Shown here in pieces: positions 17,352 to 62,547 of a stretch of DNA of 64,000 bases. The DNA lies in contig JAUCBJ010000597.1 in NCBI GenBank assembly GCA_032718475.1, positions 1 through 64,000 of the forward strand, in the 5' to 3' direction. The notes under the pieces are model-generated. The model worked only from the letters and a program-made list of their open reading frames with translations, was not told where the DNA came from and searched no databases. This stretch comes from Nemertoderma westbladi. Its lineage: Eukaryota; Animalia; Xenacoelomorpha. The translations under genes were made by a program, and so were the position numbers. How positions within the stretch are numbered: the first letter of the stretch is position 1; every line of letters begins with the position of its first letter.

Positions 17352-18419
17352 ATGCCGAGCCCTGAAAGAAATCGGACGCGAGGAGCGAGACGTCCTCGAC
17401 CTTATGACAATCCCTCCGAACGCGGTAAATCCTCCCACAGAGTGTTCCTAAGCAACCTTCCTTATGATCTCCGATGGCCAGACCTCAAAGACATATTCCG
17501 GGACAAGGTAGGCGAGGTTGGACACGTGAACCTACAGCTGAGCGAAGATGGGAGGACGAACAAAGGGATCGGTTGGGTAGAGTTGACAAACGCTGAGGAC
17601 GTCGAGAAAGCCATCGACGTGCTCAATCGTACCGAGGTTAAAGGCCGGAAGATAATCGTTAGACAAGAGACGTCTAGGGATCGGGAGCGGTTGCGAGAGA
17701 CCAGCGAAGATGTCCGTCGTCAACGGATGCCGTACGCCGGGATGGAGCCGACGCTTGGGGGCGGGGGGATGGGGTTCCCAGGGGGCACTGGAGGCGGAGG
17801 GGGGCTCCTAGGGGGCGGGGGGCTAAGCCAAATCGCCATGCTGCTGCAGCCCCATCTCGCGGACGCGTTGTCCGGCGGCGGGACCAACTGCACGATCTTC
17901 GTCGCGAATCTCGAGTACGGCATCGCGTGGCAGAAGCTCAAGGATATCTTCAAGGTGGCGGGTCGGGTGCGGCGGGTCGATTTGAAGGAGGATAACGCGG
18001 GTAAAAGTCGAGGGTGCGGCACAATCGAGTACAGCAACCCGGAAGAGGCGATACGAGCGGTCTCGATGTTCCACGGACAAATACTAAACGGGCGGCCCAT
18101 GTCGGTCCGACTGGACGACATGGGGGGTAGAGGGGAGCGTGATCGATATGCCCCCCCTCGGGGGGACCGAGGTAGGCCCCCTCCCCGGGGGGAACTCGAT
18201 TTCAAGCCGCCCAGAGAGGCCGACTTTATGCCACATCGGCCTCCTCCCATGGATTATATGCCTCGGGAGGATCCGTTGATGGGTTTGGGTCGGTTGGACA
18301 ACCCGCTGTTGGGTCAGTTGGCGGGTCTCCTCCAGTTGGCCGCATCCCGCGGTGTCGGGGATGTTTACGAGGACCGGAGGGATTACGGTTACCGTGGGGG
18401 CCCCAGGTACGGTCGTTAG
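17352..18419 (+). CDS. Intronless hnRNP M/MYEF2-like RNA-binding protein with two RRMs, nested in an EGFR intron
   Basis: RRM1 RVFLSNLPYDLRWPDLKDIFRDKVGEV...KGIGWVE and RRM2 TIFVANLEYGIAWQKLKDIFKVAG...GKSRGCGTIEY...AVSMFHGQILNGRPMSVRLD are characteristic of hnRNP M/MYEF2. G/M/R/P-rich linkers; GC-rich intact ORF. Confidence 0.88.
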   Translation: MPSPERNRTRGARRPRPYDNPSERGKSSHRVFLSNLPYDLRWPDLKDIFRDKVGEVGHVNLQLSEDGRTNKGIGWVELTNAEDVEKAIDVLNRTEVKGRKIIVRQETSRDRERLRETSEDVRRQRMPYAGMEPTLGGGGMGFPGGTGGGGGLLGGGGLSQIAMLLQPHLADALSGGGTNCTIFVANLEYGIAWQKLKDIFKVAGRVRRVDLKEDNAGKSRGCGTIEYSNPEEAIRAVSMFHGQILNGRPMSVRLDDMGGRGERDRYAPPRGDRGRPPPRGELDFKPPREADFMPHRPPPMDYMPREDPLMGLGRLDNPLLGQLAGLLQLAASRGVGDVYEDRRDYGYRGGPRYGR

Positions 18420-24535: not shown

Positions 24536-25047
24536 TTTTAAATCTTTTAACGGGAATCATGACTAATGTGGTTTTCGATTGGAGCAAGCCTGGAGTGTCC
24601 GATTGCTGATCAATGCTGATCAATGCTGATCATGGTCAAGATCATGATCGGGCAACTTCAAACTCGAAGTTGTGAAGGTAAACCATATGCTGCCTATTGA
24701 TTGGCGCCGGTCCCAACTCCGTAGCATTAGCCGTTTTGGCTGTAGCTCCATAGCAATGAGGTTGCTAGGGAGGCTGACTTTTTGACTCAAATTGGCCCTA
24801 GACGGAGAACCGTAGACTTTTGAAACATAATGTATATGGGAAAAAGTCTTCTGGATAAATTTTGTGGGGGGGTCTAGGAACATCCTATTGTTGGTTTTCG
24901 CTTAGTTTCTGAGAAAAGCTTCTCCCAGAAATTCCGGCCAATCTATAAAGGCCTGCGCAATGCTAGTACCGTGGCCGAGCACGGATTCGGGTTATCCGAA
25001 CACGATAACCTGCGGTTGGGGCCCTGACCGTCCAGTCCTTCCTCATG

Positions 25048-25994
25048 AGTAGTATGGTAAACACCTGGAATAAAACAGCTTCTGCAATAGTCTACCATGT
25101 TAAAGAATTTGCCGAACGGCTCTTGCCCCGCCTACTTACTATGATTACCATTGTTGCCCCACCCACTTACTATGGTTACTATGGTTACCATTGTGCATAT
25201 GTAACATATGTCACCACTGTGTATATGTGACATATGTGGTATAAGGCCAGTCCACAGACGGAAGTAATTTAATTAATTCGTGTCTACCGGTTGGCGTTTG
25301 ACCTTGAACCGCAATAGGTAAAACCCAATATAGTAAGTGGGTTGCAGACGTTTGTTATAAAGTCTTTAACATGATAGACTATTACAGACGCAACAACTAA
25401 AAAAGGTGAATAAACACAGACTAACGGTGGCTACCAATATTGTCAAGCAATAAGTTGCGGGGGCGAGCCGCGAAGTGAGAATAAGGTATTTATAATATTA
25501 TTTTAATTTGATTATTCTACCTATGGGGCGAGCCATGAAGTGAGTGATAGCATCGAAGTAAGGTTATTGTATTTATACTTATCACTACGCAACAAGTTGT
25601 GGGGCGAGCCACGAAGTGAGTATAAGGTTATGGTATTTATAATATTATTTTAATTTGATTATTCTACCTATGGGGCGAGCCATGAAGTGAGTGATAGCAT
25701 CGAAGTAAGGTTATTGTATTTATAATATTATTATTTTAATTTGATCATTTACTTAAATCCGGCACCGCTTTATTTAAAAATTTCTCCCACCATCCACCCG
25801 CTTATCCTGCTATCACCATCCGCCCAATCTTCTTCCTCATCCTCAACATCATTACCACCACCACCATCACCCAACATCCCCATCATTCTTTCCAACATTG
25901 AAAAAATGGGGCGAGCCATGAAGCGAGTGAAGCCTTAGCATATGGGTGCCATTAATGAGTTGTGGGGCGAGCTACGACGAAGTAAGGTTATTGT
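25048..25994 (+). repeat. Polinton left terminal inverted repeat
   Basis: Reverse complement of 43548-44495 with only about 10 differences seen by eye. Contains internal GGGGCGAGCC(A/G)(C/T)GAAG(T/C)GAG repeats. Confidence 0.96.
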
Positions 25995-26080
25995 ATTTAT
26001 AATATTATCATTATACCAACAAATTTGATTATTATACTTAAATCCATCACCATTACTATTTTAAAATTTCTTCCACCACC

Positions 26081-26515
26081 TCACCCATTTATCCCGCTAT
26101 CCTCGCTATCTACATCCTCCACATTATTACCATTACCACCACCACCATCACCCAACATCCCCATCATTCCTTCTAACATCTCAATCCTTTCTTTCATCAC
26201 CTTCTCCTGTGCACACCTCTCAGCCTCCCTCGTTCTCCTAACCCCCTCAGCCTCCATCTCCAACTCCCAATCTTCACCCCACGCACTGTTCTTTCTCGCC
26301 TCTTCCTCCAAATAATGGTTCTTCTCTATCTCCTCCCACTCATTTCTTGGATTTAACAACCTCTCCAACCGCGCTTCTTCTTTCTCCCTCGCATACATAG
26401 CCACCAATATTGCTTCATTCTCCTTCGCTATTTCAGCCACCACATCCACATCTTCCACCTCTTCCCCCACATCCATATCTACTTCATCCACCACAAGTTC
26501 ATTTTCCCCCAACAT
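26081..26515 (-). CDS. Polinton acidic (E/D-rich) hypothetical protein
   Basis: 144-aa ATG ORF, Glu-rich and coiled-coil-like. Its 3' end is duplicated inside both TIRs. Confidence 0.55.
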   Translation of the reverse strand: MLGENELVVDEVDMDVGEEVEDVDVVAEIAKENEAILVAMYAREKEEARLERLLNPRNEWEEIEKNHYLEEEARKNSAWGEDWELEMEAEGVRRTREAERCAQEKVMKERIEMLEGMMGMLGDGGGGNGNNVEDVDSEDSGING

Positions 26516-26747
26516 ATCCGTGTATAATAAATAAAATAAAGTAATAAATATATAAATATGTGTATAATAATGTATAATACTATAAATAAATTTATATAAT
26601 ATTTATTTCAATCGATAATTCATTATACCAACAAATAATTTACCACCACAAAATAATAATAATAATTTAACCGTGCCCGGCTTTTTGCGGCGACACCGCC
26701 TACGAACATGGTCTATTTATATAATAAAGTTTCTACCGCTCGAAGAT

Positions 26748-28040
26748 TCACACTGAATGTTTATTCTTCTTTATTTGAGGTTGCCCATTAGTCTCGATTT
26801 CATTGAAAATGTCTTCGCCATCATCCGTATCATTGACGATGTCCTCTTCAAAGTTGCTGATATCTTCATACTCATAGCTAGGTGTTTTATTCACGATGAG
26901 ATCAATTTTTCGCTTAAGCGCTTGTTCTTTCATGGCTTTAGGTGTTTTCATCTTCATCTGAGCGCTCACACCCCCAACGAGGGTATCAATATCCTTATAA
27001 TCATTCTTTTTTTCAGCGCCGTCTACCCGCTCATTTTCTGCAATCGCGGGCAACCAGATTTTTTTCTCATCCATTTTCTTAGCAGCGACTTTTACTGCTT
27101 CGGACGTCTTCAGCTGACTAGCGTTGTCCGGCATTTCCACTTTCATTAGTTCCTCGTCCACTAATTCATCAATCGCAGCCTCAACAACTAACTTTTTAAT
27201 CGGTAGAAACTCACACCCAGACGGAATATCGTGGCCCACGTACTTCTGTAATTCCTTAATTATCTTGACATTTGCGTTGTTTCGAGGGATGAAAATAGCC
27301 TTGGTGTCGAAGTTGTGGGACAAATATATCCCGTTTTCGTTAATGATCGATCTGTACCTTACACTAACCTCGTCGATATTCTCCTTAACATTCTTATCTA
27401 TGTTAAAGTCGAGCAAACAGAATTCATCCGCTCTGAGATTCAACCCATCGTAATATAGAACACCCTTCCGCTGTTTACCTATATCATCCGCTTCCCAAAC
27501 GCTGACAAATCGTTGCCCTTCAAAGTCGTAGATATATCCAATGTACCCACAATCTTCGAACTCCATAAAATTCTCATCATGAATTTCCTTCTTTTTTGGT
27601 TCAATACGGGAAAGAACGACTTTGCCGTAGATGCTTTGTAAGACATCTAGAATTTTTCGCGAGATAAAAATTTATGCACCGTTTTTCCCAATGCGTAAGT
27701 ACGCATGATTTATTGGTGTTATAAGCAAATTGCCTCTGGTGTATTCCTTGTAATATTCAATGGCTATTTTATTATAATTGAGGAAGTCAAACAGGAATCT
27801 TATGTTCTGGTAAGTAAGACTTACCGATTCTTGCACGACGTTGCGTCCTTTTGTATCACCCCAACGGCTGAATCGAACGTATTTCCCGTTAAATGCTTTT
27901 ATTTCTATTCCTTCACCCAAACACTCGAGGCCCCACACACTCTTACCTGTAATCACCGATACGTATGGGGCGGGCGTGCTATCAGTAGAGCTACCGCTTA
28001 ATGACATCATTTTTGGTTGTGATGGTTTCGCAGATTCCAT
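26748..28040 (-). pseudogene. Polinton protein with tandem PC4-like (ssDNA-binding/coactivator) domains; one gene interrupted by an in-frame TAA at 27672-27674
   Basis: ORFs 27672-28046 and 26748-27566 are in the same frame, separated by one stop plus 35 sense codons. IEIKAFNGKYVRFSRW...SVSLTYQNIRFL and IYDFEGQRFVSVWE...RKG...GLNLRADEFCLL resemble PC4 (VRDFKGKVLIDIREY...KGISL..EQW..L). Acidic/basic tail. Confidence 0.55.
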
Positions 28041-28251
28041 CAACAAATTTTGTGAAATATTAATAATTAAGTGTAAAAATACAATAATATTGCGCTATAC
28101 AATGTGCGAAAAATATGAAATAATGAATTAACCCGAATGACAAAATAAAGTATTTTACGACGTATTTATAATATAATGATGGGCTATCGGGAAAACGGGT
28201 ATAATTTAACCACTCAACCGGATTAATCGCTATTGTCCTGAGAGAATTTTT

Positions 28252-28277
28252 TTTGAAAAACTTCCTATAAATTTCGA
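28252..28277 (+). promoter_or_regulatory. 26-bp TATA-containing motif, copy 1 (TTTGAAAAACTTCCTATAAATTTCGA)
   Basis: Exact second copy at 42955-42980. Lies in the divergent intergenic region with ATF/CRE-like TGACGTAA (28307) and TGACGTCA (28412). Function is inferred. Confidence 0.5.
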
Positions 28278-28741
28278 GGGAAATATTTATTTACGCTTAA
28301 ATTGGTTGACGTAAGTGGTAACAGCTTGCGGCGGCGATTAATGCGGCCTATATAAATTTTTATAGACACACCCTCAAAATTCCGCAGAATATTACTCACG
28401 GTTAAATTGATTGACGTCAACTGTATTAACTGTGTAGCTTCTTAGAAGTTTCATAATTTTAAGCATGAGCGAATTTAATTTAATGTCGGGATCTCAAACT
28501 TTCTCTCACAACAGATATTTTTCTGTAATCATTTACTAAAAACGAACGATTGCGGCGCGCGAACGGCGTTTTAAAGACACACCCATTATAAATATACCCA
28601 TTGGTCAAAATATTATTGATTAAGCAACATGACAATACTGGGGCAGCTTGAGTCTATAGATAAGATCATTTTTTCAAATATATTATTCATTGTTACCTTT
28701 CTTTTAGGAATTTTTTAGGTAAAATACGCCATAATAAAAAA

Positions 28742-29260
28742 ATGTTTCCAATAATACAAGCTGAAAATAGTTACCGCGGTCCTAATTCAATTATTCCAAT
28801 TAAAATTGAATTGTTAAGCCCGGCAGCTCGGGCACCTGTATGCGGTTCATATAGCCCAGCTGGGATTGACATATATAGCGCCGTGAATAGAACAATAGAG
28901 CCGCACTCACGGATGTTAATTGAGACGGGTGTTAAAATATATTTACCCGCCAATTATTTTGGAAGAATTACACCGACTTTTAGCTTGACAAAAATTGGCA
29001 TCGATGTTGCAGAATGTGCGGTTGATTCCGGCATTGCGCGCGGTAATATAGATCAACTTGTAATTATATTGATTAACAACACATCTAAGGAATACGTTGT
29101 AACATCGGGCGATAAAATATGCCAGCTTATATGCCAACAATGTAATGCTGCAATACTCTACATTTCTAATATTTATTCGGATGATTATTTTGGGCTTTTA
29201 CCGACGAATTTAACGCCGTATGGGGAAGAGATTAATTCGACATTTTACCGCGCATATTAA
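28742..29260 (+). CDS. dUTPase-like protein, probably catalytically inactive
   Basis: Motif I AGIDIY, IETG and motif IV GDKICQL are present. Motif II is GRITPTFSL (RSG lost), motif III is AVDSGIARG (Tyr lost), and motif V RG..GFGSTG is absent. Confidence 0.85.
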   Translation: MFPIIQAENSYRGPNSIIPIKIELLSPAARAPVCGSYSPAGIDIYSAVNRTIEPHSRMLIETGVKIYLPANYFGRITPTFSLTKIGIDVAECAVDSGIARGNIDQLVIILINNTSKEYVVTSGDKICQLICQQCNAAILYISNIYSDDYFGLLPTNLTPYGEEINSTFYRAY

Positions 29261-29553
29261 ATATGTGACATTAAACGCATAACACCAAACTCGGGTGGTG
29301 ACACATGTCAATACTATTTCAATACTCTTACACGCGATTATACAACATAGTTAATAGAGCATATAAATAGGATAATGTCAGTTCAGTAAATTTTGGTTGG
29401 TTAAACGGTTTCTAGCGTGGGTGGCTGGTTGACTGGGTATTGGATATATTTATCTACATAAAATCTGCCGCATCTCTTTCATCGGCATATTGTAAATATG
29501 TTTTCTGTACCTACGTTAATAAATATATTATAATCGTAATAATAATAATTATA

Positions 29554-32500
29554 ATGATGGAGATTAATTGCGTTTTTTGCGGTTGTACTATACTTAAGAA
29601 AAATTATTTACGGCATTTACGCGCACATTTCGATGGGTATGTTTGCGATAATTGTAATTGCCGAACTACTTCTGAAAGAATAGCAATATTTCACAGTAAT
29701 AGATGTTGCGGGTTGTCTCGCCCGAATTACACCTACTGCGGTTACACGCTATCCTGCCCGACATGCTCTGATGATTTTGAAAACTTCGATTCATATATCG
29801 AACATAGTTGCCATCAAAACCATTACAATTCCCGCAAACGCAAACATAACCAAAAACAATCAGAACCGACATTTCAACCGGATCTCAACCTTGGTTCGCC
29901 TGTAAGCATTACAAACAGTTCAGATACACCCAACGAAGGTTTTTATCTCTCAAAAACATGTCACGAATCACGCGTTCAGGAATATACCCATAATGTGTCA
30001 TCTAATGAGATGTATCCGGATGTGCCGAATTATTTAAATTATATGGGGTTATATGCTTCGCGCGCTTTTAACACGGCGGCATCGGCTTTTATTGATATGT
30101 TTTATAAAGTGTGGGTAATTGCTTCAGTGATAATGAAACGTGATGATGCTAATTATACTCTAGAAGAAGAATTCCATTTTACTTCGATCGGTACAGATAA
30201 TTATATTGAAAATAGCTCGGATTTTGACGAATGGTACTACACAGTCATTTCCCATATCGGTGAAAAAATATCGCAATTTATTAGGCGGGGTAGCGGCTGG
30301 AAACTTGTAACTCTATCGCGCATCAAACTTACTATTGCGTCATACTTGCGATCGGTATATCGTTTTGGACATAGCGGTGATGCCAACCAATCAATCCCGA
30401 CAAAATTAAAAAATAAACATTGTATAATAAATGTACCATGTAATGAAGGTGAATGTTTTAAGTGGGCGGTCCTGACAGCAAAATTTTCAAAACATATATC
30501 GGATGATCACACACTGCGCCATGTTTCACGCCAAAGTTCTTATAATCAGTATTTAGGGTTTTTTAATTTAAGCGAATTAGACTCTACCCTATCATGGAAA
30601 CTAAATATTCTAAAGTTTGAAAAAAATAATCCAAATTATTTAATAAATTTATTGTATTTTGATAGAAGTAGTGAAAAAATTTCCTTTCTACGGCAACCGA
30701 GCGCTAAAAAAGCTGAAGGTAAAAGATTGCTAAATTTATTGCTTATTGAACGTCAAAATTTAACCTCAACAAATCACATCGTCGGGGTTTCTAACTTAAA
30801 TAGATTATTTAATGGTCGTGGGGAAGGCAATAGCGACCATCATTGTCATCGTTGTGAGCGGTGTATTTGCGGTTTCTACAGTCCAAATGCGTTAGAATGC
30901 CATAGATTAGGGTGTTGGCAAGGCGGGCGCCAAATAGAGGAGATGCCATCTAAACTGAATTTACGTTTTACTAATTACTATAAGTACACTATTTTAGTTA
31001 GTACTTATTAGTACACCTTTCATAGTATATATGGATTTCGAAGTGGTACTAGCCCCAACAAATAATGTAAAAAAATATTATATAGCCGAACATCTCCCGT
31101 CGGCTGTGTCATATTTGATTGTCTCCAACGGTGAATTAATTAACCCCCCAAATTATTTTTTGTCTACATTTAGACAAAATATCGATAATAACTCGGTACA
31201 GAATTTTATTGATAGTCTGGTTTTTTATTTATTTAAGTGTTATGAATGGTCTACCTTTAACACACACCACCCCAAACACCTGGATCACACACAATACCAA
31301 GCTTATATGCGTAACACAAATTGCTTTAATTGTAAATCATTTTTTCGGGAAGATATAAATCCAAGTGTGATGCATCACAACCATTACAACGGGGCTTTCA
31401 TTGGTGTGGCGTGTATTTCCTGTAATAAACAATTAAGTGTTAAACGTCACCTATTCCCAGTTGTCTGTCATAATTTTTTTTTTATGATTCACATTTAATT
31501 TTACAAAAAGGGTTTGCCGGTAGTAAATATAAAAATTGGAACATTGAAACCATTGCAAAAAATACTGAAAGATATATCTCACTCCGCATCGATATTCCAA
31601 TGTCAGAAGCACTTAGCGTTCTTGGTTATGCTATTCCAGAAAAGGACGTAAGAGGGCTCCCAACCAGCAAATCAATAACTATACAGTTTATTGATTCATT
31701 CGCGTTTATGGGATTTTCCCTTTCTGCTTTGGCTGGGTTTTTGACAAAAGATGTGTCAGATTTAACAACCGTTATTCCACACACCGTGAAGCAAATGAGA
31801 AAATTATATCCAAATGTTACCAACGAAATTTTATGCCGTAAGTCAGTTTTTCCTTACGAATATGTCGATTCCTTAAGTAAATTGGGGGATACTAAATTAC
31901 CGCATCCAAAAGAGTTTTACAGTGAATTAACATTATCATCTATTAGCCCTGAAGAATATACATTTGCACATCTTTCGTGGGAGCAATTTCAATGTGAGAC
32001 ACTTTTTGATTATTTGGAAGCTTACTTACATCTTGACGTGTTGCTGCTAGCCGATATTTTTGAAAATTTTCGCGCATATTGTACTAAACATTATTCGCTT
32101 GAGGTGTCGAACTATTACACGATGGCGGGGGTTAGTTGGGACGCGGCTTTGAGATTTTCCAAGCCACATATTCGTCTACTTGCAGACCATGAAATGTATT
32201 TAACATTCGAAAATTCCATTAGGGGCGGAGTTTCTTACACCAACCTTCATATGGCAAATGCGAATATACCAGGCACAGAAACATACGACCCTAATAAACC
32301 CGAAGCTCATTTATATAATTTAGATTTCAACAGTTTATATAGCGGTTCTTTGTCGGAGAAACTTCCTTATTCTGACTTTGAATGGTTGGATGTTGATAGT
32401 GTCGATATCATGAGTCTGGAAATTGACGAAATATATGGATACTTCGCAATTGTAGACCTTGAATACCCAATGACTATTCATGATGCCACAGCCGAGCTTC

Positions 32501-33641
32501 CATTTGCACCGGAGCATATTAAACTCGATAGTAGGTATCTCAGTCCACACATGAAAAGTCTTTGGCGACATTATAATGGTGATAAAATTTTCAATAGCCC
32601 AGCAAAAAAATTGATGTTAACCCAATTTGATAAGTATGAGTACGGTGTGCATCTAAAATTATTGCGCTTTTATATTCATCATGGTATGCGCTTGATTAAA
32701 GTTCATAAACTTATTAGATTTAAGCAAGGTTACATTTTTAAGGATTTTATTGAATATAACACCCAGCAAAGAAAAATAGCAAGCAATGACTTTTATGATA
32801 AGTTTCACAAAGGAACAAATAACGCGCTTTTCGGGAAAAGCATGGAGAATATACGGGACCGTGTCTCATTTCGCTTATGTAATTCAATCGAGAAATGTGA
32901 CTTATTATTATCCAAGCCGAATCACGAAAATTTAATTATGTTCACTGATTCATTATCGGGTCACGTCCTATCTAAGACTGCGGTTTGTTTGCATAAACCT
33001 ATTTTTTTAGGGCAAGCTGTATTGGACCTGTCGAAGTTAGATTATTACAGTTTCTTCTACGAGAAATAAAGCCCCTGGAAGCCGAATTAAATTGTAGTAT
33101 AAATTTGTTAGGTGGGGACACGGATTCTTTTTTTTTACAGTGTGTTGGTTTATCCCAACACCAATTTTTATCTGCGTTACAATCAAAAAAAGTTTTAGAC
33201 TGTTCAAATTATCCTATTACACATCCGTTGTATACAGTAGAACAGAAAGGGAAATATAGATATTTAAAGGATGAAGGGAAGTCTATCCCGTTTGACCAGG
33301 TTATTTTACTTAGACCAAAATGTTATAGCTTTCGTGGGGGGTTAGTTCCAAAACGTGTCGCTAAAGGCGTAGGAAAAATGGTTATAAAAAAGAAACTCTC
33401 CCACGAATCATATTTAAAAGTATATAACGAGGTTAGCGAGCATTATGAATACAGTCAAAGGTTTCAATCTAATTTACATAAAATATACACCGTTTCACAA
33501 AGAAAAAATTCGCTAACACTGTGGGAAGATAAAAGGTACTACACATCGACTAATGAAAGTCTACCTTACGGCCATTATAAAACACATTTGGATCGTAAAG
33601 CGCCCGCCCCTAAGCTTTATATGCCGCCCATTATAGAATAG
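29554..33641 (+). pseudogene. Protein-primed family B DNA polymerase (pPolB) with N-terminal zinc fingers, split into 4 ORFs
   Basis: C2H2-like fingers; GSGW; CFKWAV; exonuclease YMDFE, HN...YDSH, FIDSF, KSVFPYEY, YLHLDVLLLADIFENFR; EndoVII-like HHNHYNG...CISCN; polymerase DFNSLY, K...NALFGKS, GDTDS, LRPKCY, DKR. Breaks near 30990, 31480 and 33066. Confidence 0.95.
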
Positions 33642-33650
33642 CGGATTGCG

Positions 33651-34211
33651 ATGTCTTTTAGTGTTGTCAACAGTAATATAAGTTTGAGGTTGGTTGATGG
33701 GTGCATATCATTCGATGTGCTGGCTAAACGAATTCGAAATGGAAAACTCATCTTAAAGCCTTTTCAATATATCGCCAAAATTTGCGGATGGACGTGTCTC
33801 TTTTTCCCGAGCGGTAAGGTCACTGTACTCGGTAAATCGCCTAAAATAAAAAAAATTATTAAGTATATATATAAGCATACTGATTATAAACTAACTTTTA
33901 TTTCAATCAATAGCCAAACTTACATTATTAACAATCTAGACATAGACTATAGCAAATTAATGAAAACGGTCGGGTTTCATTTTTTAGATAATTATTATAA
34001 TGTGGAGGTGAAATATGAGCCGGAGATATTTAATAATATTCTTGTGCAGTTTTATCGTCGGGGTAAAACTAGTTCTAATATCATAACATTTTGCGTTTTT
34101 TACACACGAAATGTTGTGTGTATGGCAAGACCCAGGATATTTCGAGTATTTTTTCCAAAGTTTTTGAATTTTATCGGTAATTTAGATAGTCATTTAGGTA
34201 GAAATATTTAA
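33651..34211 (+). CDS. TATA-binding protein (TBP)-like protein encoded by the Polinton; intact 186 aa
   Basis: Bipartite TBP core. VVN...ISFDVLAKRIRN...KPF...TCLFFPSGKVTVLG compares with LQN...LDLKTIALRARN...KRF...TALIFSSGKMVCTG. SINS...IDYSKL...YEPEIFNNI...FCVFYTRNVVCMA compares with IQN...IRLEGL...YEPELFPGL...LLIFVSGKVVLTG. Confidence 0.82.
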   Translation: MSFSVVNSNISLRLVDGCISFDVLAKRIRNGKLILKPFQYIAKICGWTCLFFPSGKVTVLGKSPKIKKIIKYIYKHTDYKLTFISINSQTYIINNLDIDYSKLMKTVGFHFLDNYYNVEVKYEPEIFNNILVQFYRRGKTSSNIITFCVFYTRNVVCMARPRIFRVFFPKFLNFIGNLDSHLGRNI

Positions 34212-34641
34212 TATTTAATTTTTTCATTTCTGGCACCAGTTTTAGGTTTGTCCGGTGGGATCTCGTTAGGTTTTTAAATAAACGCGGATATTAACATTAT
34301 TCACATTATATATAACGTGTTTTATCGGTAGTCTTAGGTTGTCAAGGGCGTCAATTTCATTTCTGATGTCGGTTTATATTTACATAAATCTAGTCTATCT
34401 GTCTATTTGTCGGTCTTTCTGTCAGTCAGTATGTCAAAATTAATTCATTGTTCGCGTTATATAATGTATTTTATTAATTATTATTGATGTTAGGTTTTAA
34501 AGAGTGCCGGTTTCTATAATTGCTCTGTTTTATCGCGTGAAAAACCCCACCCACGCATATAATCGATACTATTTATAACGGTGGTGGTGTTTTATTACTT
34601 ACAATTATTGTTCTCGTTTATATAAGTTATTAATATATGTA

Positions 34642-35103
34642 ATGAAATCACTCAAAGCTTTAATTAAACAATTTGACGGGGATTTAAAGTTCTTATCTAA
34701 CGCCTCCCTCAACCGTAGAAAAACCTTCTTACGCGTCGGCGGAACCGACGAACTTATAAGTTTTCTAATTAATATTATTCTAAATGTATTAAATGGTAAC
34801 GTAAAAATTCCTGAGCAAACAATCGTGAGGTTAAAATGCCATAAAAAAACAATACGCGAGATTGCTAAAAAACCAAAAGCCAAGTATCCCATTCGAATTT
34901 ATCGTAAACGATTGGTGCAAAGGGGCGGATTTATAAATCTACTAATCTCTGGTTTAATGAGTGGGCTTAACGCTTATCAGAAAATATCACCCATAATAAT
35001 GGCTGTAAGAGGCAGAAAATTAGCCCAATCCCGCCGGGGGTATAGACCTAGTACCTCTGGTACACGCGTCAACCGTCAAGTTTCTAGGTTTCCCATCTAC
35101 TGA
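34642..35103 (+). CDS. Conserved Polinton/adintovirus small basic virion protein with QRGGF motif and amphipathic helix
   Basis: ILNVLNGNVKI...LKCHKKTIREIA...RLVQRGGFINLLISGL pattern, located next to the ATPase. Confidence 0.7.
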   Translation: MKSLKALIKQFDGDLKFLSNASLNRRKTFLRVGGTDELISFLINIILNVLNGNVKIPEQTIVRLKCHKKTIREIAKKPKAKYPIRIYRKRLVQRGGFINLLISGLMSGLNAYQKISPIIMAVRGRKLAQSRRGYRPSTSGTRVNRQVSRFPIY

Positions 35104-35120
35104 GTGGCTACCTATCAACA

Positions 35121-35831
35121 ATGTCCCGAGAGCCGACGATATCGCAGGAACCAATCACATCATACGACGCCTCTTTCAAGATGGGTTCGGCCATGATTAT
35201 TGCGGGTCCAAGTTCTTCCGGAAAAACAGTGCTGGTATCAAAAATTGTAAAAAATAAAAATTTAGTTTTTGATATAACCCCGAAGCGTGTATTATTCTTT
35301 TATGGCGCCACCCCACCAGAATTCCCAGGTATAACACATCTATTCAAAGGTTTACCGCAAAAAATTAATTCTATTTTCCGCGAAAACGATCTAATTATTA
35401 TAGACGACTTGTTAAGCGAAAGTAAGAGTGATGAGAGTTTGACAGAAAGCTTCACAAAAACCTGCCATCATACTTCCTGTTTCATTATCTATATAACACA
35501 AAATTTCTTCAGTAAAGGGGCGGAAACACGGACTAGAAGTCTAAATGCCCAATATTGTATTTTCACAAAAAATCCCCGCGACGCAAGTCAAATAAGCTAT
35601 ATAGCGCGGCAAGTGTACCCAAAAAATAGCAATTTTATTGTTCAAGCATATAGTGACGCCACACAAAAACCATTCACACACCTTCTCTTAGACTTTCATC
35701 AAAAAACGGATGATAGTATAAGAGTTAGGGGTGATATTTTCAACCCATTAGGGCAAACTGTTTATCAACCCACGAATATGAACTCTAACACACCTCACCA
35801 ACGCCCTGAGGCTCAGTCTATACCTCAGTAG
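35121..35831 (+). CDS. A32/FtsK-like DNA packaging ATPase
   Basis: Walker A GPSSSGKT, Walker B LIIIDD, HH...IYITQNFF, SLNAQY, KNPRD..QI motifs. Confidence 0.95.
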   Translation: MSREPTISQEPITSYDASFKMGSAMIIAGPSSSGKTVLVSKIVKNKNLVFDITPKRVLFFYGATPPEFPGITHLFKGLPQKINSIFRENDLIIIDDLLSESKSDESLTESFTKTCHHTSCFIIYITQNFFSKGAETRTRSLNAQYCIFTKNPRDASQISYIARQVYPKNSNFIVQAYSDATQKPFTHLLLDFHQKTDDSIRVRGDIFNPLGQTVYQPTNMNSNTPHQRPEAQSIPQ

Positions 35832-35957
35832 AGACGCCGCGCTAAAACCATTTTCACACCTTGTTTAGACTTTCACCAAAATTAGGTTATTATCGGTCCA
35901 TGAACGTGAACTCCAGTACAGTATATAGTATTAATATATTAATAATGATATATAACG

Positions 35958-36419
35958 ATGAAAAATAACGAGATTAGCCTCGGAAATTTTAAGAAGTTGT
36001 ATCTAGTTTCTACTTTATTAACGGATACTTATAATAATAATAATAAGAAAAGCAATAATATAATACAACCGCTAGATGGTGTGACAATTTCATCCCAGAA
36101 AGCCAAACGATTGTTGAGTTATTTGATGCGATTCTCGCGAGACAGAGTATGGTGGAGTGATAATAATAAACTCTATATAGAAAATAAACTTATACCCGGA
36201 GCGAATATTGATCATTTGATTGAATTGCTGACTACAAAAAAAAATAAGAAAAACACCAAAATAATTCCAGGACAAGCAACATTTTTGGGGTTATTAAAAC
36301 GATTAAGGATACCAAAACGATTAATTGGTCGCGGTTGGTTGAAACGGCAAAGGGTCCGTGTGACCCCTTCCAACGCAAAACGCGTCGACGCGTGGAAACA
36401 ATACGTAGGACTACAATAA
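35958..36419 (+). CDS. Conserved Polinton hypothetical protein
   Basis: KAKRLL..L...VWW...IPGANIDHLI...PG...FL..L pattern, between the ATPase and integrase. Confidence 0.65.
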   Translation: MKNNEISLGNFKKLYLVSTLLTDTYNNNNKKSNNIIQPLDGVTISSQKAKRLLSYLMRFSRDRVWWSDNNKLYIENKLIPGANIDHLIELLTTKKNKKNTKIIPGQATFLGLLKRLRIPKRLIGRGWLKRQRVRVTPSNAKRVDAWKQYVGLQ

Positions 36420-36537
36420 ATCGACATGCGGAAACAAAACGCGGGATAACATTAAAATAGTAGTATGTTTTTTGAACGTTTCATATTAAGTATTAACTGC
36501 CATTGCAAGTGTTTTCTGCCGCGACACGACACAACCG

Positions 36538-37657
36538 ATGGGGAGAATCGTAGAAAATCGAACAAACAAACGACTGGGAAGAATATATTACGATGTTTCA
36601 AATGCTGCCGGTTTCGCGAGCGTAACCAAACTAGCGAAAGCCGCTAAAGTTACGAGAAATCGCGCAAAGGAGTGGTTGAGCTCCCAACGAACGTATTCCC
36701 TACACGCGCCGGCTAGGCGCCATTACCCGACATCAAAAATCTTCACGGGTGGTATTGGCGATCTATACCAAGCGGATTTGTGTGATATGCAACCTTTTAG
36801 GGGCGAGAATAATGGCTACGGTTACATACTTACTTGTATTGACTGTTTTAGTCGGAAGGCGTGGGCGTTGGGTCTAAAACGTAAAACAGGGGTCGAAATT
36901 AAAAGGGCCCTAGCCGCGATATTCGAAGAAAGGAAGCCTAAACGGCTAGCAGTTGATCAAGGAACTGAGTTTGTTAATAAATTGGTGAAAGATTTCTTAC
37001 AGAACAATAATGTTCATTTTTATACATTAGTTAGCCAATTTAAAGCTAGTATCTGTGAGGCTGAATCGCACCCTCAAATCTCGCATGTACAGAATTTTCA
37101 TGAGGAGACAGAATAGAGAATGGATGTACTCATCCATTCTCTATTCTGTCTCCGTTCTCCATTCTCTATTCCCAAAAATATTGGTTGCATATAATAATTC
37201 AATACATAGAACCATTGGTATGGCACCAAACTCTGTCAATAAAAAGAATGAAACTGACCTATTTTTAAAACTATATGGGAGTGTGGGTCATCCCAATAAA
37301 AGAAAACGTCGCGCACAGCGTCGAGTTCATTTCAAGGTTGGTGATAAGGTGCGGCTGAGTTTAGCTAGAAAGCCATTTGACAAAGGTTATACACCTAATT
37401 ATATAGTAGAAATTTTCAAAATTTACAGAATAAGATTGGATCGAGAGCCGTACCCTATGTACGAAGTTGTGGACTCGAATGGGCGCGTTATAAAGGGGAC
37501 ATTTTATCGACATGAAATCCAAAAGGTAATAGAACCATTTCTATTCCTACCAATTGAAAAAATAATTAAAGAAAAAGTAAATAAAAGCGGGAAAAAGCAA
37601 TATTTGGTTAAATTTGTTGGTTTTGCGACACATCGATGGGTTGATCACGTACAATAA
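36538..37657 (+). pseudogene. Retroviral-like (rve/c-int) integrase with C-terminal chromodomain-like region; frameshifted near 37058
   Basis: YSLH, QADLCDM, YILTCIDCFSRKAW, VDQGTEF, KASIC(E/R)LNRTLK, YNNSIHRTIGMAP, FKVGDKVR, FDKGYTPN, IEKII...YLVKFVGF. Confidence 0.95.
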
Positions 37658-37671
37658 TTAATTATATTATT

Positions 37672-38528
37672 ATGGATTACTTACATTTAACGTTGACTTC
37701 CGACGCCAGTCTAGATAAATATCCTGATAACACTCCCAGCGATTTCACGATTGAGTTGTCCAAACCTATCCCCGTCAGCACAGATTGGGTCGTGGGCCTA
37801 AAGGAAATACAGTATGTGTCGACCTATAGAAATATTGAACAAAGATCCGGAATTAGAATTGGGGAATATATGTATGATGAGGATTTGGAATTTCATATAG
37901 CTCCATACAATCTTATAGAAATCGATTTTAATCTTGGGCTATATGCTTCTATTGAGTCAATTTTAAACCATATTAGTGTTTATTTGAAAAATCCCACAAT
38001 ATCCCACCATGGTTTCAAAGATGTTAAGTTTAACTACCAAAACATACATCAAAAATTCATCTGTATTGTAAGAAAGGTCGCTATTTCCAATTCTATGGAG
38101 ATATAATAAATATTTTCGGGTTATCGAGTTTAAAAAATAATTTAATGGGTCTTGGGGCGCTTTGGGCAATACACTACAACGGAGATGATGGTTTATTGAA
38201 CTTAGGCTGTAAAGATACAAACAAAATGGATGGGGTCGAATTCCCTGAACCTTGCGATATAACGAGGGATAGACACACAATGTTTATATATACAGATATG
38301 ATTGAATCTTCTCACGTAGGACATTCGATGGCGCCTCTTTTGCGGATAATCCCCTTGAAATGGGAACCATACTCATTCATCAACCAGGAATTCAAAAACA
38401 CACATTACAAACAATTAAAAAATAAAAAAGTGCTCGATACAATTAGTATAACGCTTCGCGACCATAAAGGAAAGCATATAGTCTTTCATGGAGGTAAAAC
38501 AATTTTAGTTCTAGAACTCAAAAAATAA
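37672..38528 (+). pseudogene. Minor capsid (penton-like) protein 1; frameshift near 38075
   Basis: N-terminal LTSDAS...YPDNTPSDFTIEL...WVVGLKEI; C-terminal FIYTDMIE...VG...APLLR...Y...ISITLRD..G..I.F......LEL. Confidence 0.85.
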
Positions 38529-38530
38529 CA

Positions 38531-39360
38531 ATGGCGACAAAAACTACAAGAATGAACAGTTATTACGTTGTACTACCCTCAAACGCAAACCCCATAGAAT
38601 TCCCACGTAATAGCGCCAGCGATTTCCAAACAAATTTGCAAATTCCTTTACCTTTCGCTAGAGGGCAGTGGTTAGTAGGTTTAACTGGTATAACATAACG
38701 TACGTATCTAGTATCAGGTATGACAATAGCGACATTTATATAAAGGCCATAAAAAATAAAAAAATGTTTACAAGAGATGTTACTCTCCCCGAAGGATCTT
38801 TCCTATCGTTGGAAAGGATCATTGAGTACTTCAACAAAAGCCTTATTAAAGGCCAAATTAATATAATTGATAATAGAGCACGCTCCGGTAATATAACCAT
38901 ACATTTTAAAGGTAAACAGTTGTCGATATTTGTCAGTAAACGTTTGGGTGGTTACCTAGGATTAACAGAACACGAGGTTGACGGCAAAGGTTTTATGTGT
39001 GTACAAAATGCTGTAGGGGATTATCACTTGCTAAGGATTGATTCACGAAATAATAAGTACAACTGCCATAAGCATCCTAATGCTGTCGAAATACTGGAAC
39101 CCAACATAAATATACATATCAATTGCGTCGAACCTCAATTTGTAGACAATAGCGAATACCCTCTGTTACGTGGCATACCCATAGAAGGGGAATATGGGCA
39201 AATTATTAGTCGAGAAGTTCAGGAAGTCTACTATAAAAAAGTTAATTCAACATCTAATTTACGTTATATACGAGTTCGGTTGATTGGGGATTCGGGAAAT
39301 TTGTTGCGCTTTCATTATGGAAATTCAATATTGACGCTTCATTTTATACGAATTGATTGA
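38531..39360 (+). pseudogene. Minor capsid (penton-like) protein 2; disrupted by a 5-bp duplication (ATAAC ATAAC) near 38690
   Basis: From ATG 38531: YYVVLPSNA...FPRNSASDFQTNL...WLVGLTGIT*, continuing in ORF 38668-39360 with VEPQFV...PLLR...YYKKV...IRVRL....G..LRF......LHF. Confidence 0.85.
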
Positions 39361-39427
39361 GATAGACACAATTTAATCGATGTAAATTATTTATTCTTAT
39401 CTGATTATCTGAAGTAATAGCGACTAT

Positions 39428-40021
39428 ATGGATAAATTTCTAAGCCGCAGCCATGGGAGTGATTATTACCCGACGCTGGAAACCCCGGGAATAATAGTAG
39501 ATTTCCAATATTATACGCATCATCCGCAGATCGGCCAACACCCCGTTGCAACCATTTATTTTAAAGAGTTTGCGGCTTATAATACTACTATCAAATCATT
39601 AGAAAACGTATGGTTTATTAATGGTCCACCCGCAAAAATTTTAAGTTTAAGCGAATACGATCGTCTCACACAACTCGCCAATATTACGCATCACATTAAT
39701 TTTGGCTACGGATTTATGGACCAAAGCGCATTTAAAATGTACATACAGGAATGGTTACAAGAAAAAAAACGGTTGGGGTTTCAAATATTAATACGCGGAA
39801 TACCGAAATTATTTATTTTAAAAAATGAATTTAATGTGAATGGAATACTTCTAGAAACGTACGGCATAAACGAAAAATATATTGATCATGACACCAAATG
39901 TCTTTTTCATGATTATTCGGGAATAACAAATTGTGCCTACCATTCTGATAAAGATTCTTGTTTTAATTACTGTTCTATGAAACTCGCAGTTGGTTATGGG
40001 AAATGGTTGTCATCAAATTAA
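39428..40021 (+). CDS. Polinton hypothetical protein, possibly a DEDD-exonuclease-like fold with Cys/His C-terminus
   Basis: Intact 197-aa ORF. IIVDFQYY...IYFKEFA, HHI..GYG and C..H...C pattern. The fold call is weak. Confidence 0.5.
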   Translation: MDKFLSRSHGSDYYPTLETPGIIVDFQYYTHHPQIGQHPVATIYFKEFAAYNTTIKSLENVWFINGPPAKILSLSEYDRLTQLANITHHINFGYGFMDQSAFKMYIQEWLQEKKRLGFQILIRGIPKLFILKNEFNVNGILLETYGINEKYIDHDTKCLFHDYSGITNCAYHSDKDSCFNYCSMKLAVGYGKWLSSN

Positions 40022-40143
40022 TGCATATATATTTATTAATTATATTGTATTATTATGTGGTACATATATTATTTGTTGATTACACATATACGTATGTAGT
40101 AAAGAATTATTATTATACGTTATAATAAATACTCATAATAATA

Positions 40144-40671
40144 ATGTCAGATTTTAATTTGTTTAAATTATATAGCGCCCCACAAATCCAACTGGGAAGT
40201 GGGAATTATAGTGATATACCTGTTTTTAAGGGTGGAAGCATTCTCCCAGGGTTTGGCCCATCTACTGGTATATGGAATAATAAGAATAATAAATTCGGGC
40301 GGCAATACACCCAAAATCGTCAGCGTGGGCGCGGAATATTAACAACTGGCCTCGGTATATTAGCGCGCAAGTTAGGGAGAAAGGTACTAACTAAAGCGCT
40401 CCCCAAAGCAGCAAGAGTAGCGCGGAAATACATAATACCGGAAGGAAAACGTATTTTACGCAGTAAAGCAGATGATTTGATAAATAAAGTGGCCGCGCGG
40501 TTAGAACCTCATCCAAAGACACGCCAAATCGCCCAACGGGTATACAATGAATTTACAAACCCGAAAAGTAAAAAAAAGAGGAGCTGGAAACGGCGACACC
40601 CAAGTGTGGGTATGAACGTTGGGCGCAAACGTAAAAAGCGAAATAATAAATGTCGCGACATTTTTATGTAA
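40144..40671 (+). CDS. Basic core/DNA-condensing virion protein (adenovirus pVI/pVII/pX-like role)
   Basis: PVFKG, QRGRG followed by an amphipathic helix, and a K/R-rich C-terminus ending DIFM. Immediately upstream of the major capsid gene. Confidence 0.7.
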   Translation: MSDFNLFKLYSAPQIQLGSGNYSDIPVFKGGSILPGFGPSTGIWNNKNNKFGRQYTQNRQRGRGILTTGLGILARKLGRKVLTKALPKAARVARKYIIPEGKRILRSKADDLINKVAARLEPHPKTRQIAQRVYNEFTNPKSKKKRSWKRRHPSVGMNVGRKRKKRNNKCRDIFM

Positions 40672-40678
40672 CTTAACA

Positions 40679-41930
40679 ATGAGTAAATTAGAATTATCAT
40701 TATTCTCGAGTAAAACAAATCAGCGAGAATATACATCTTCACATTTTTTGGATATCTACCCGATTTCTACTCTTGATGCGAATGCCAGGCAAATAGAGTT
40801 CTTTATACCCCAGTCAAATGTTCTATATACTGATTTAAAGAATTCGAAATTTCACATTAAATATAAAATTACGTGGGATGGTAATAGGGCTAACGACGAT
40901 ACAACCCTCCACCATCTCAATTACCCCGGTGGGTCACTATTTGAAAATTGTTCGTTATACCTAAATGAAAAGCTAGTTGAAACCTCGAATGGGTTCTACG
41001 CCTATAAGTCTACGTTTCAGACATTACTGCTGACAGATGCTAACGAAAAACGCGGTATTTTAAGAGCTGGCGGTTATGAAGATACAAATAATAATCTAGG
41101 CGGGGTACCAGTCGCTACTGAGAATGACGTTCGCGGGAATTATGTTAAATTCGTTGTGGCCCCAATTTTTTTAGACCTAACAAGCCAGGACAAATTACTG
41201 CCGCCAGGAATTAACATTCGACTTCGTATAGACCGAGTATCGAATAATTTTTTTTTTGAAAGTTGAACCCCCCGCAGGATTGGTAAACCCAAGAGTTGAA
41301 ATCATGAATATTAATTTAAAAATAAAACGCCACAGGATTGATGCCGAGGTTATGCGTGCGCATTTGTTGGGGTCACAAAAAAATGACTTTATTTATAACT
41401 TGTTAAAACAAGAAGTGAAAACCTTCACTATTGGTGGCGGGCAGTCCAGTTATACAGAATCGAACATAATCCAAGGGAAATTACCTAAGTATATTTTGAT
41501 TGGAATGCTTACCAACGCCAGCTTCAACGGGGAATTAAGCAGTAATCCGCTACATTTTAACCATTTCGGTTTAAATTATGCCGAACTAAACATCGACTCC
41601 CGTATTATACACGGGTATCCATATCGCCCTAACTTTCCGGAAAACAATTTTATGTTGGAATTCGAAAGTTTAATGAACGTGTTCAAGAGCTTGAGCGGCG
41701 TATTTTGCTCGCTAACACCAGAACGGTTTCGTACCCAATTTCCTTTGATCGTATTTGATCTTACCGCCGGAGGCGATCAAAGCCATGAGATTCAACCTAG
41801 TATACATACAAGCGGACATTTGATTCTGAAATTTAGTAATGCGCTAGTTAACACTATTAACGTTATATTAATGGCAAGCTATGACGCTCTTCTATCTATT
41901 TCAGAAGCCAAGGAAATAATAACCGAATAA
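40679..41930 (+). pseudogene. Major capsid protein (double jelly roll); frameshift in T10 run at 41248-41257
   Basis: SKLELSLF, IEFFIP, YTDL, SLFENCSLYLN, YAYKS, LDL..QDKLLP, GKLPKYILIGM, F.G....NPLHFNHF, FDLT, L.LKF...L motifs. Confidence 0.92.
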
Positions 41931-42024
41931 ATAAAGATCTCGCATAGTACAAAGTAAGCGAAGCCACACCGCCTGCAGAATTAGAAAAATTCTCTTAAAC
42001 TTTTAATGATACGCGTACGCTAAG

Positions 42025-42464
42025 ATGTTGGACTCTATACAATTAGCGAAATTCCCGGTGGGGCCAGAATACATCGGTGTTTACGCAATCGACCAATTAC
42101 ACCTAATACACACAAAAAAAATAAGCATAAACAAAATTATTCATTTATTATTAATAATCAACGTATAGGCCTACCAGGACAACACTGGTCTTGCGTACGC
42201 GTGGTTAACAGAATTGCTTATTATTTAGATTCGTTTGGTAAAGCCCCGCCACCAAAAATATCATATTGGCTGCATAAATATACCCAAAGGCATACTTGGA
42301 ATCGTAAAATATTTCAAGCGCCGCAATCGACTCGGTGTGGTCTATTTTGCCTGTATTATTTAACCGAGGTGCCGAAAAATCCCGGAGCAATGAATATATT
42401 CACCTCTAATTTGCGGTACAATGATTTATTGTTATTACTGTGGACACTTTCATTAATAAAATAA
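42025..42464 (+). pseudogene. Adenain-like (C5) cysteine protease; frameshift in A8 run near 42114-42121
   Basis: YIGVYAIDQL, then IINN....PGQHW (His), YLDSFG (Asp) and Q...STRCGLFCLYYL (Gln/Cys). Confidence 0.92.
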
Positions 42465-42954
42465 TTTAATTATTTCGGTTATGGGTATATTCAATTGCGG
42501 TGTGTGAACATGTTATTAGCGTTAATATTAATAATAAATATTTATTTCTTGGGTATATAGTAATAGCAATATTTTTAATAAATATATGGGACGCGGTAAG
42601 TGACGTGGGTTGGGGTCTTCACGCAGCACTATTCGTTTTTAATTTTTATTGTCAATCACAGAAACCTCGCGGAGGTCTCTTTAATGTGTGGGCGGCTGGT
42701 AAAACTGGAATAATAATATAATAATTGGGCATAGAGCACATTGGGACCCAACTCTTTCCGTTATATGCCAAGCATCTGCCGCCCAACCTATGTGGTTAAC
42801 ACAAAGGCCAGAATCTCTATCCACGCTACACGCATTAGACAATAATTAAACGCTCTAACGACAATCAAAGCTCTGGGTTCAATTTACTCACATATGTGGC
42901 CGGTTTCTCAAAAGAAGAAATAAGCCATATACGAAGCATAGATAATTAGCCTTA

Positions 42955-42980
42955 TTTGAAAAACTTCCTATAAATTTCGA
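42955..42980 (+). promoter_or_regulatory. 26-bp TATA-containing motif, copy 2
   Basis: Identical to 28252-28277; ~145 bp upstream of ORF 43125. Confidence 0.5.
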
Positions 42981-43124
42981 AGCATAGAAAATTAGCCTTA
43001 CCAAAGTAGTTATTAGTTCTGTTGTAGTTTGCTATATAACATTGAGAATCGCGATAGCGGCATCACTTTATTATTTTAATTTTTAATATTATTCTTAATT
43101 TATTAATTATTAATTTCAATTTCA

Positions 43125-43406
43125 ATGGCTGAAGGCGGTAAAAAACCGACGTTAGTTGTTCAACCCTTCGAGCATCATCCTCCAACATTTAATTTAGAAA
43201 AATGGAACAGGATGAATCTAAGAAGAGTTATGTGGGCACAAAGGGTGCGGGTGATGCACTCAATTGAGGTAAACTGCAGGTATAATGATGATTTGGTCCC
43301 AGCGTGCCCGGCGATCGTCTTGCCGATCGCCGGGGGGCGACCGATGTGTGTGTGCCCACCGCGGATGATCGGTGAAACGCATACGCCACCTCCAACCGAA
43401 AATTAA
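43125..43406 (+). CDS. Small Polinton hypothetical protein (93 aa)
   Basis: ATG ORF that is GC-richer than its AT-rich flanks, with TATATAA upstream and AATAAA downstream. Confidence 0.45.
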   Translation: MAEGGKKPTLVVQPFEHHPPTFNLEKWNRMNLRRVMWAQRVRVMHSIEVNCRYNDDLVPACPAIVLPIAGGRPMCVCPPRMIGETHTPPPTEN

Positions 43407-43547
43407 TGTAAGTAATAATTTCGACAATTAATATAATAACATTAATAAATAAAATCAACAAATTCAACAATAGTACCTACATGCTAAAGGCTTTGCTTAC
43501 TTCGTGCCGAGTGAAGGCTCAGGACATGGCTCGCCCCTCCACATATA

Positions 43548-44495
43548 ACAATAACCTTACTTCGTCGTAGCTCGCCCCACAACTCATTAATGGCACCCAT
43601 ATGCTAAGGCTTCACTCGCTTCATGGCTCGCCCCATTTTTTCAATGTTGGAAGGAATGATGGGGATGTTGGGTGATGGTGGCAGTGGTAATGATGTTGAG
43701 GATGAGGAAGAAGATTGGGCGGATGGTGATAGCGGGATAAGCGGGTGGGGTGGTGGGAGAAATTTTTAAATAAAGCGGTGCCGGATTTAAGTAAATGATC
43801 AAATTAAAATAATAATATTATAAATACAATAACCTTACTTCGATGCTATCACTCACTTCATGGCTCGCCCCATAGGTAGAATAATCAAATTAAAATAATA
43901 TTATAAATACTATAACCTTATACTCACTTCGTGGCTCGCCCCACAACTTGTTGCGTAGTGATAAGTATAAATACAATAACCTTACTTCGATGCTATCACT
44001 CACTTCATGGCTCGCCCCATAGGTAGAATAATCAAATTAAAATAATATTATAAATACCTTATTCTCACTTCGCGGCTCGCCCCCGCAACTTATTGCTTGA
44101 CAATATTGGTAGCCACCGTTAGTCTGTGTTTATTCACCTTTTTTAGTTGTTGCGTCTGTAATGGTCTATCATGTTAAAGACTTTATAACAAACGTCTGCA
44201 ACCCACTTACTATATTGGGTTTTACCTATTGCGGTTCAAGGTCAAACGCCTACCGGTAGACACGAATTAATTAAATTACTTCCGTCTGTGGACTGGCCTT
44301 ATACCACATATGTCACATATACACAGTGGTGACATATGTTACATATGCACAATGGTAACCATAGTAACCATAGTAAGTGGGTGGGGCAACAATGGTAATT
44401 ATAGTAAGTAGGCGGGGCAAGAGCCGTTCGGCAAATTCTTTAACATGGTAGACTATGGCAGACGCTGTTTTATTCCAGGTGTTTACCATACTACT
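43548..44495 (-). repeat. Polinton right terminal inverted repeat
   Basis: Reverse complement of 25048-25994. Confidence 0.96.
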
Positions 44496-44814
44496 CTCAT
44501 GCCTGTGTATACGATTGGTGTTCAGGTCCCTGTGAGAATTAATAACAAAGTGTTAGAAAACCAAAAAAATTATTTACATCAGACGTGAAGAGTAGCACTA
44601 TTCAGCGTTAAAACAGTTGTATACTTGTGTTAACCTCACTCGCTGCGGTCGCTCGGTATATTACCGGTAATTAATACAATCCGGTCGAAACACAAAAATT
44701 CTACATTGATTATATTATATTTTATTTATTTATCATATATAATTACACAATGATGTAATTAGTTAAATAACCAATTAGATCCACAGCCACAGTAACTATC
44801 AATATTTACTAAAT

Positions 44815-54804: not shown

Positions 54805-62547
<7,743 letters not shown>

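Follow-up and report, generated by a model that had tools for sequence, protein, structure and literature searches.

The window analysed here, the first 64,000 nt of contig JAUCBJ010000597.1 of Nemertoderma westbladi, contains a complete Polinton/Maverick copy of 19,448 bp, in agreement with the original prediction of a Polinton of about 19 kb (Table 1). The element has the termini AGTAGT...ACTACT and long terminal inverted repeats, and the two copies of its 6-bp target duplication, CTCATG, are identical. Among its genes, the protein-primed family B DNA polymerase (pPolB, PF03175) and the retroviral-type integrase (PF00665), both in frame pieces here, lie above the Pfam cut-off, as does a dUTPase (PF00692). 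The packaging ATPase and the protease have only sub-cut-off Pfam matches, and the capsid ORFs have none. We take the latter to be two minor capsid (penton) genes and a major capsid protein gene, from their position and general likeness. [quoted passage not shown]

This copy carries breaks in several genes: pPolB, integrase and protease, those thought to encode capsid proteins, and one gene of the left arm. Near several of the breaks its sequence departs from that of deep contigs representing other copies, and the breaks therefore look specific to it. A 197-aa ORF in the right arm (39428-40021), with a Cys/His-rich end and a faint Maelstrom match (E = 0.091), is possibly a DEDD-type nuclease. 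The insertion site is probably intronic, within an EGFR-family gene. A Receptor L-domain-like exon (14083-14481, + strand; Pfam E = 8.5e-4, below cut-off) lies on one side and an EGFR-type kinase exon (54808-54960, + strand; E about 1e-16) on the other, and these flanking exons point to an animal host.

Table 1. Coordinates of the Polinton copy and its features within the window
Feature	Position	Strand	Remarks
Polinton/Maverick copy	25048..44495	.	Complete
Left target-site duplication copy (CTCATG)	25042..25047	+	6 bp
Right target-site duplication copy (CTCATG)	44496..44501	+	6 bp
Left terminal inverted repeat	25048..25795	+	748 nt, 7 mismatches
Right terminal inverted repeat	43748..44495	-	
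430-codon frame	26748..28040	-	In-frame stop at codon 123; two internally similar segments
dUTPase-family gene	28742..29260	+	PF00692, E = 1.4e-15
Protein-primed family B DNA polymerase (pPolB)	29554..33641	+	PF03175, E = 1.4e-15
pPolB frame pieces (n = 4)	29554-31011, 30998-31498, 31474-33069, 32997-33641	+	
Divergent two-lobed TBP homolog, 186 aa, intact	33651..34211	+	Profiles, ESM Atlas, alignment-guided model
153-aa ORF	34642..35103	+	No family above cut-off
Packaging-type P-loop ATPase	35121..35831	+	AAA_14, Pox_A32 and FtsK matches, all below cut-off
Retroviral-type integrase, chromo-like end, two frame pieces	36538..37657	+	rve, E = 7.6e-12; Chromo, E = 9e-4 (below cut-off)
Probable minor capsid (penton) genes (n = 2), both in pieces	37672..39360	+	No Pfam match
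Probable major capsid protein gene, two frame pieces	40679..41930	+	No Pfam or PHROG match
Probable cysteine protease gene, frameshifted	42025..42464	+	Josephin, E = 1.5e-4 (below cut-off)

The TBP-like ORF is open throughout and starts 9 bp past the point where the last pPolB piece stops. The original prediction was right about both its integrity and its place behind the polymerase, although the polymerase itself is split into four frame pieces in this copy. TBP (PF00352) is the only Pfam family that matches the ORF (E = 0.0021, 18.3 bits, under the 22.9 cut-off); this score shows the distance from the Pfam model and is not what we would base family membership on. Against a profile of 11 full-length TBPs from viral contigs, the ORF scores 21.9 bits, which none of 2000 shuffles reaches (maximum 8.1), and the runner-up among the 213 ORFs of the window scores 2.0 bits. 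Because a motif present in the query ORF had guided the choice of these 11 TBPs, the test was repeated with 101 of 120 database TBPs of 160-210 aa, retrieved with a query alignment that contained this motif as well. The ORF scores 13.8 bits with this profile (0/1000 shuffles). When its halves are taken separately, the N-half score is reached by 1/1000 shuffles and the C-half score by 0/1000; with either of the best motifs masked, 2/1000 and 3/1000 shuffles reach the score. Alignment to TBP with hhalign gives a probability of 90.9 (E = 1.1e-6, 103 columns). In the ESM Atlas, a result independent of our own alignments, the first match scores 0.95 with 197 of 256 features and 29 of 30 matches are PF00352, although the recognition value of 1854 falls below the 2300 mark, which weakens the Atlas score. 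The predicted two-lobed TBP identity is upheld over the whole ORF and in each half, and we are highly confident that the ORF is a genuine, constrained, distant TBP homolog carried by a Polinton.

A single-sequence fold of the ORF failed (pLDDT 36.1, unusable). The alignment-guided model reaches a pLDDT of 81.4 and a pTM of 0.67, but was supplied with 99 TBPs as its alignment, which makes the fold match partly circular. Among 48,161 chains, TBPs take its first five places, with Z scores of 10.1-11.8 across 160-163 residues, and the next unrelated chain has a Z of 6.6. In all three structure libraries compared, TBPs come first, at an rmsd of about 5-6 Å and a TM score of about 0.5. The anticipated saddle fold is predicted by this guided model only.

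For comparison of individual residues, anchors were set by hand. The TBP wedges have equivalents in F38, F52, F127, and F150 (within KPF, LFF, YEPEIF, and CVF). The four intercalating phenylalanines claimed by the original prediction are present in this copy, but in all four sequencing runs compared most of the contig depth has Tyr at position 38. The first conserved Asn, also claimed, is N7, which the model puts in strand 2-14 ahead of helix 21-27. Since N87 mirrors this arrangement, lying in strand 81-94 ahead of helix 100-105, it is probably the second conserved Asn. MAFFT and HMMER align N95 there instead, leaving the register unsettled; the supplied alignment also had N95 at this place, so the modeled position of N87 is not circular. 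All four aromatic wedges and both Asn are present, with the N87/N95 register disputed. The YEPE motif holds E123 and E125, which appear to correspond to the two C-lobe glutamates that contact TFIIB in the signature given in section 11 of PMC7221094.

Conservation differs between the lobes. The N-lobe run TCLFFPSGKVT is kept (7/16 identities), its hairpin is 3 residues shorter than in TBP, and its H2 region, still Lys-rich, has lost 8 residues (35 versus 43, if N87 is the second Asn). The ORF lacks the full-length N-lobe H2 helix with a basic patch for TFIIA, TAF1, and Mot1 that marks eukaryotic cellular TBP. In the C-lobe, the TFIIB stirrup is the best-kept part (5-6/13 identities), the surroundings of F150 retain 3-4/17 identities, and there are insertions of 9 and 6 residues. 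To judge from so altered a C-lobe, DNA binding may have been lost or changed.

Cellular TBP and its paralogs (PF00352; for example PDB 1cdw, 1ytb, and 7o4i_O) have in common with the element protein the two-lobed saddle, the four aromatic wedges, an Asn on the opening strand of either lobe and the YEPE stirrup. The element protein differs in having only 26-28% identity to eukaryote-type TBP cores, no N-terminal tail, and anchor spacings of 31/14/35/35/28 rather than 30/17/43/26/22. In addition, its saddle centre is polar, with N9 and Q89 each two residues past an Asn, and the C-lobe motifs PG, SGK, and TG are lost. The low identity agrees with the earlier view of a gene too distant for recent host capture, and the missing tail with the view that it has no N-terminal extension. 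At the positions we take to be equivalent to those changed in the altered-specificity mutant TBPm3, the ORF has L131, T146, and C148. TBPm3 is given as I194F, V203T, and L205V in PMC1636458. We treat the likeness as a weak hint only, since Thr occupies the 203 position in a near-canonical TBP (L018) too.

Other copies of the element allow the frame to be assessed. Public runs X2 and X4 cover all 30 bins of the element with thousands of contigs, down to less than 90% identity; run X3, which covers 11 of 29 ORF bins and has a loose end at 33840, was counted neither way. The runs listed as containing the element include no RNA run. Nine between-copy differences are listed within the ORF, in a small sample of 8 codons, and 7 of them fall at third codon positions. 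Taken singly, 6 are silent; by codon, 5 are silent and 3 replaced, one being the change from F38 to Tyr, with Tyr holding most of the depth. Without selection, about a quarter of changes would be silent. No indels between copies are listed inside the ORF, and four are listed within 20 nt past its stop. Contigs that are 82-88% alike align to the 5' part of the ORF, and one of these (about 88%) bridges the end of pPolB and the start of the ORF. The open frame, the mostly silent differences, and the restriction of indels to the region after the stop make a decayed host TBP retrocopy, the case named at the outset as damaging to the prediction, unlikely.

Homologs in other Polintons, which the original prediction had proposed to look for and whose lack it had named as counting against it, were not retrieved by sequence searches. 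A word-seeded search for relatives of the ORF yielded 0 of 70 candidates, and 0 of 1 among shorter proteins; phmmer found no relatives among 1.84 billion representatives and no credible match among PDB sequences. Viral contigs searched with the ORF gave 0 loci, with 8 stretches passing tblastn within the candidate set, and metagenome contigs gave 0 of 596 stretches. Two motif scans of viral contigs returned no relatives, and NCBIfam and PHROGs contained no match. The pPolB query retrieved a single, distant locus (L001, 37% identity), where pPolB and the integrase are direct neighbors, the integrase coming second, with no intervening ORF, and the ATPase query retrieved no related elements. In a tree of 38 TBPs, with no animal-virus, mirusvirus, or TRF2 rows knowingly included, the element branch measures 5.6 changes per column and its place is unreadable.

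The distribution of TATA-like motifs separates the two arms of the element. In a gene pattern found post hoc, TATAAATA occurs 130-206 nt before four of the five left-arm genes, the TBP gene not being among the four, and before none of the 11 right-arm genes; 2/300 shuffles reach an upstream placement at 4 of 16 genes. The element holds 17 TATAAATA sites, of which 9 belong to its terminal and sub-terminal repeats, where they face outward (four in the left terminal repeat, four in the right, and a fifth left one at 25994). The repeated TATA motif of the original prediction does recur, both within the terminal repeats and upstream of non-virion genes, but is absent before the virion genes. A different motif, CGTTATA, also found post hoc, occurs 18 times in the window; 13 of these sites fall within the right arm (33423..42765; 7 sense and 6 antisense), against an expected 3.0-3.5, and none within the left arm. 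On the sense strand it precedes 5 of the 11 right-arm genes, four times at -164 to -187. It ranks 2nd to 5th of 8192 7-mers, which is not significant after Bonferroni correction (0.14-0.58), and in shuffles the best chance 7-mer reaches 4.8 genes on average. CGTTATA is no more than a candidate target motif of the TBP-like protein. A TATAAAA 75 nt upstream of the ORF was rejected as a promoter, being a Tyr-Lys codon pair of pPolB. The polyadenylation-like AATAAA occurs inside the ORF at 33845 and past it at 34277. A cluster of TGACGT/ACGTCA sites, presumably CRE-like, occupies 28307-28419 in the divergent gap between left-arm genes.

The original prediction also assigned the element a PC4-like partner gene, which we could not confirm. 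We guess that the gene meant is the minus-strand 430-codon frame of the left arm, whose two segments are 35% identical and share the pattern C-x-G...F-x-G...RF-x-S-x-W. It is PC4-like by eye only. It has no PC4 match in Pfam, PDB, or the ESM Atlas, and a profile of prokaryotic PC4s (39 of 44 fetched loci, with L049 and L082-L085 left out) gives it 0.7 bits, equalled by 134/1000 shuffles. Two motif scans for PC4 relatives retrieved no PC4. Among the 23 element ORFs, Pfam finds no TFIIB family match, and a very divergent TFIIB could hide among the ORFs that have no assignment.

We consider it somewhat more probable than its negation that the TBP-like protein acts as the element's own promoter-specificity factor, one that brings TFIIB and RNA polymerase II of the host to the packaging and virion genes. 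The kept wedges and the N-lobe motif suggest that it would bind and bend DNA, at an AT-rich and possibly non-canonical box in element promoters. Retention of both signature glutamates, together with the lack of a detected TFIIB in the element, suggests that it would then recruit host TFIIB and, through it, the polymerase. The shortened N-lobe helix region suggests escape from control of the TFIIA/TAF1/Mot1 type, and the polar residues two past each Asn and the lost C-lobe motifs point to a changed sequence preference. The placement of TATAAATA before non-virion genes, and its lack before right-arm genes, would fit an early-to-late switch in which host TBP could read the canonical boxes of the non-virion genes while the right-arm genes would need another factor, such as the element protein.

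Several viral systems provide points of comparison. A TBP gene is labeled in MELD viruses with an adintovirus-like PolB (Starrett et al., 2021, PMC8502044, Figure 5 legend), which likewise puts a gene of this sort in a linear, midsize dsDNA element of Polinton/adintovirus type. The comparison is by label alone, in a section mainly on non-animal datasets, and one supplement of PMC8502044 contains no TBP or TATA string. A TBP gene in Polinton-like elements is, on the strength of that legend, not new in kind; the claim that TBP adds to the canonical Polinton set holds for the gene content of this element, but its novelty is limited by the label. In the literature searched, which most subscription papers lay outside, no study came to light that examined the function of a Polinton TBP or compared such a protein with others.

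The TBPs of large dsDNA viruses, as described in PMC7221094, resemble the element protein in being divergent, in keeping DNA-face residues and in losing the N-lobe surface and regulatory signatures for TFIIA, TAF1, and Mot1. According to the same account, they keep the first TFIIB-contact glutamate only about 40% of the time, mostly lose the glutamates and mostly pair with a virus-encoded TFIIB. In contrast, the element protein keeps both glutamates, no TFIIB is found alongside it and its genome is only 19 kb. In this respect it differs from large viruses, whose pattern is a TBP-TFIIB pair of their own. A functional model is offered by the TBP mimics of beta- and gammaherpesviruses, KSHV ORF24 and HCMV UL87, reported to direct host RNA polymerase II to late promoters whose box is a variant one (PMC7498053, PMC8360532). 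These mimics work within a six-protein complex and bind the polymerase CTD directly, whereas the element protein is stand-alone and core-sized, with no such partners identified.

Four other readings compete with a promoter-specificity factor. The ORF might be no TBP at all, with an unrelated alpha/beta protein resembling one by chance motif likeness; the sub-cut-off Pfam score, the phmmer searches without a TBP among PDB sequences or 1.84 billion representatives, and the poor single-sequence fold lean that way. Set against a TBP signal that is present in each half and outlasts masking of either best motif, and an Atlas result that owes nothing to our alignments, this reading seems to us very improbable. 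Scarcely less improbable is a passive relic, in which a TBP gene captured long ago persists without current function. Extreme divergence, with a long terminal branch, the lack of a database relative and the many broken genes of this copy would suit such a relic, but the frame is intact, and functional motifs are kept while the rest has diverged; the mostly silent copy differences (in a sample of 8 codons) and the indels listed only past the stop also speak against it.

The remaining two readings grant the protein a function. As a decoy or antagonist, it would bind host TFIIB (or Brf1/Brf2) through its glutamates and occupy TATA boxes without firing, damping host transcription or silencing early element promoters. 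A stirrup that is the best-kept part of the C-lobe, next to an altered C-lobe DNA face and N-lobe helix, would suit a decoy, and no significant private motif was found; yet retention of both Asn and of every wedge position is expected of a DNA-bending protein, and right-arm genes without TATAAATA suggest a need for some factor. We rate the decoy as unlikely, though ahead of the other alternatives. Rather less likely again is a factor that binds the terminal-repeat TATAAATA arrays and aids protein-primed replication, integration, or packaging instead of transcription. More than half of the element's TATAAATA sites (9/17) do lie outward-facing in the terminal and sub-terminal repeats, and the gene abuts pPolB, but an end-binding protein need not keep TFIIB-contact glutamates, and host TBP could occupy those canonical boxes. 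The promoter-specificity factor is in our judgment the best of the five readings, followed by the decoy, the end-binding factor, the relic, and the non-TBP.

A TBP gene under constraint offers a concrete candidate mechanism for the timing of virion gene expression in Polintons, with one small protein, defined promoters, and a predicted host partner in TFIIB, and the protein would be a natural altered-specificity TBP. We raise, tentatively and at less than even confidence, the broader idea that late transcription in animal Polintons is controlled by a minimal switch of one gene, in which a private TBP has kept its dock for host TFIIB, shed the host's N-lobe regulators and adopted its own box (here CGT-TATA). 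If true, this would directly indicate that Polintons follow a staged, virus-like programme of expression, and would be an instance of a compact altered-specificity TBP working with host machinery.

The DNA flanking the element has further features. Directly after the kinase exon, an 18-bp tandem repeat of about 420 copies (54872-62700) produces a spurious 2580-aa ORF, and a GC-rich stretch (0.49-0.58) at 50001-53000 holds no ORF of at least 100 aa. An intronless 515-aa ORF (4170-5717), with no Pfam match and no credible PDB match, may resemble an endogenous negative-strand RNA virus nucleoprotein. A second intronless ORF (17352-18419) is GC-rich (0.61), encodes two RRMs, and is presumably hnRNP M/MYEF2-like; it is a probable retrocopy, with a TATAAATA just upstream at 17338.
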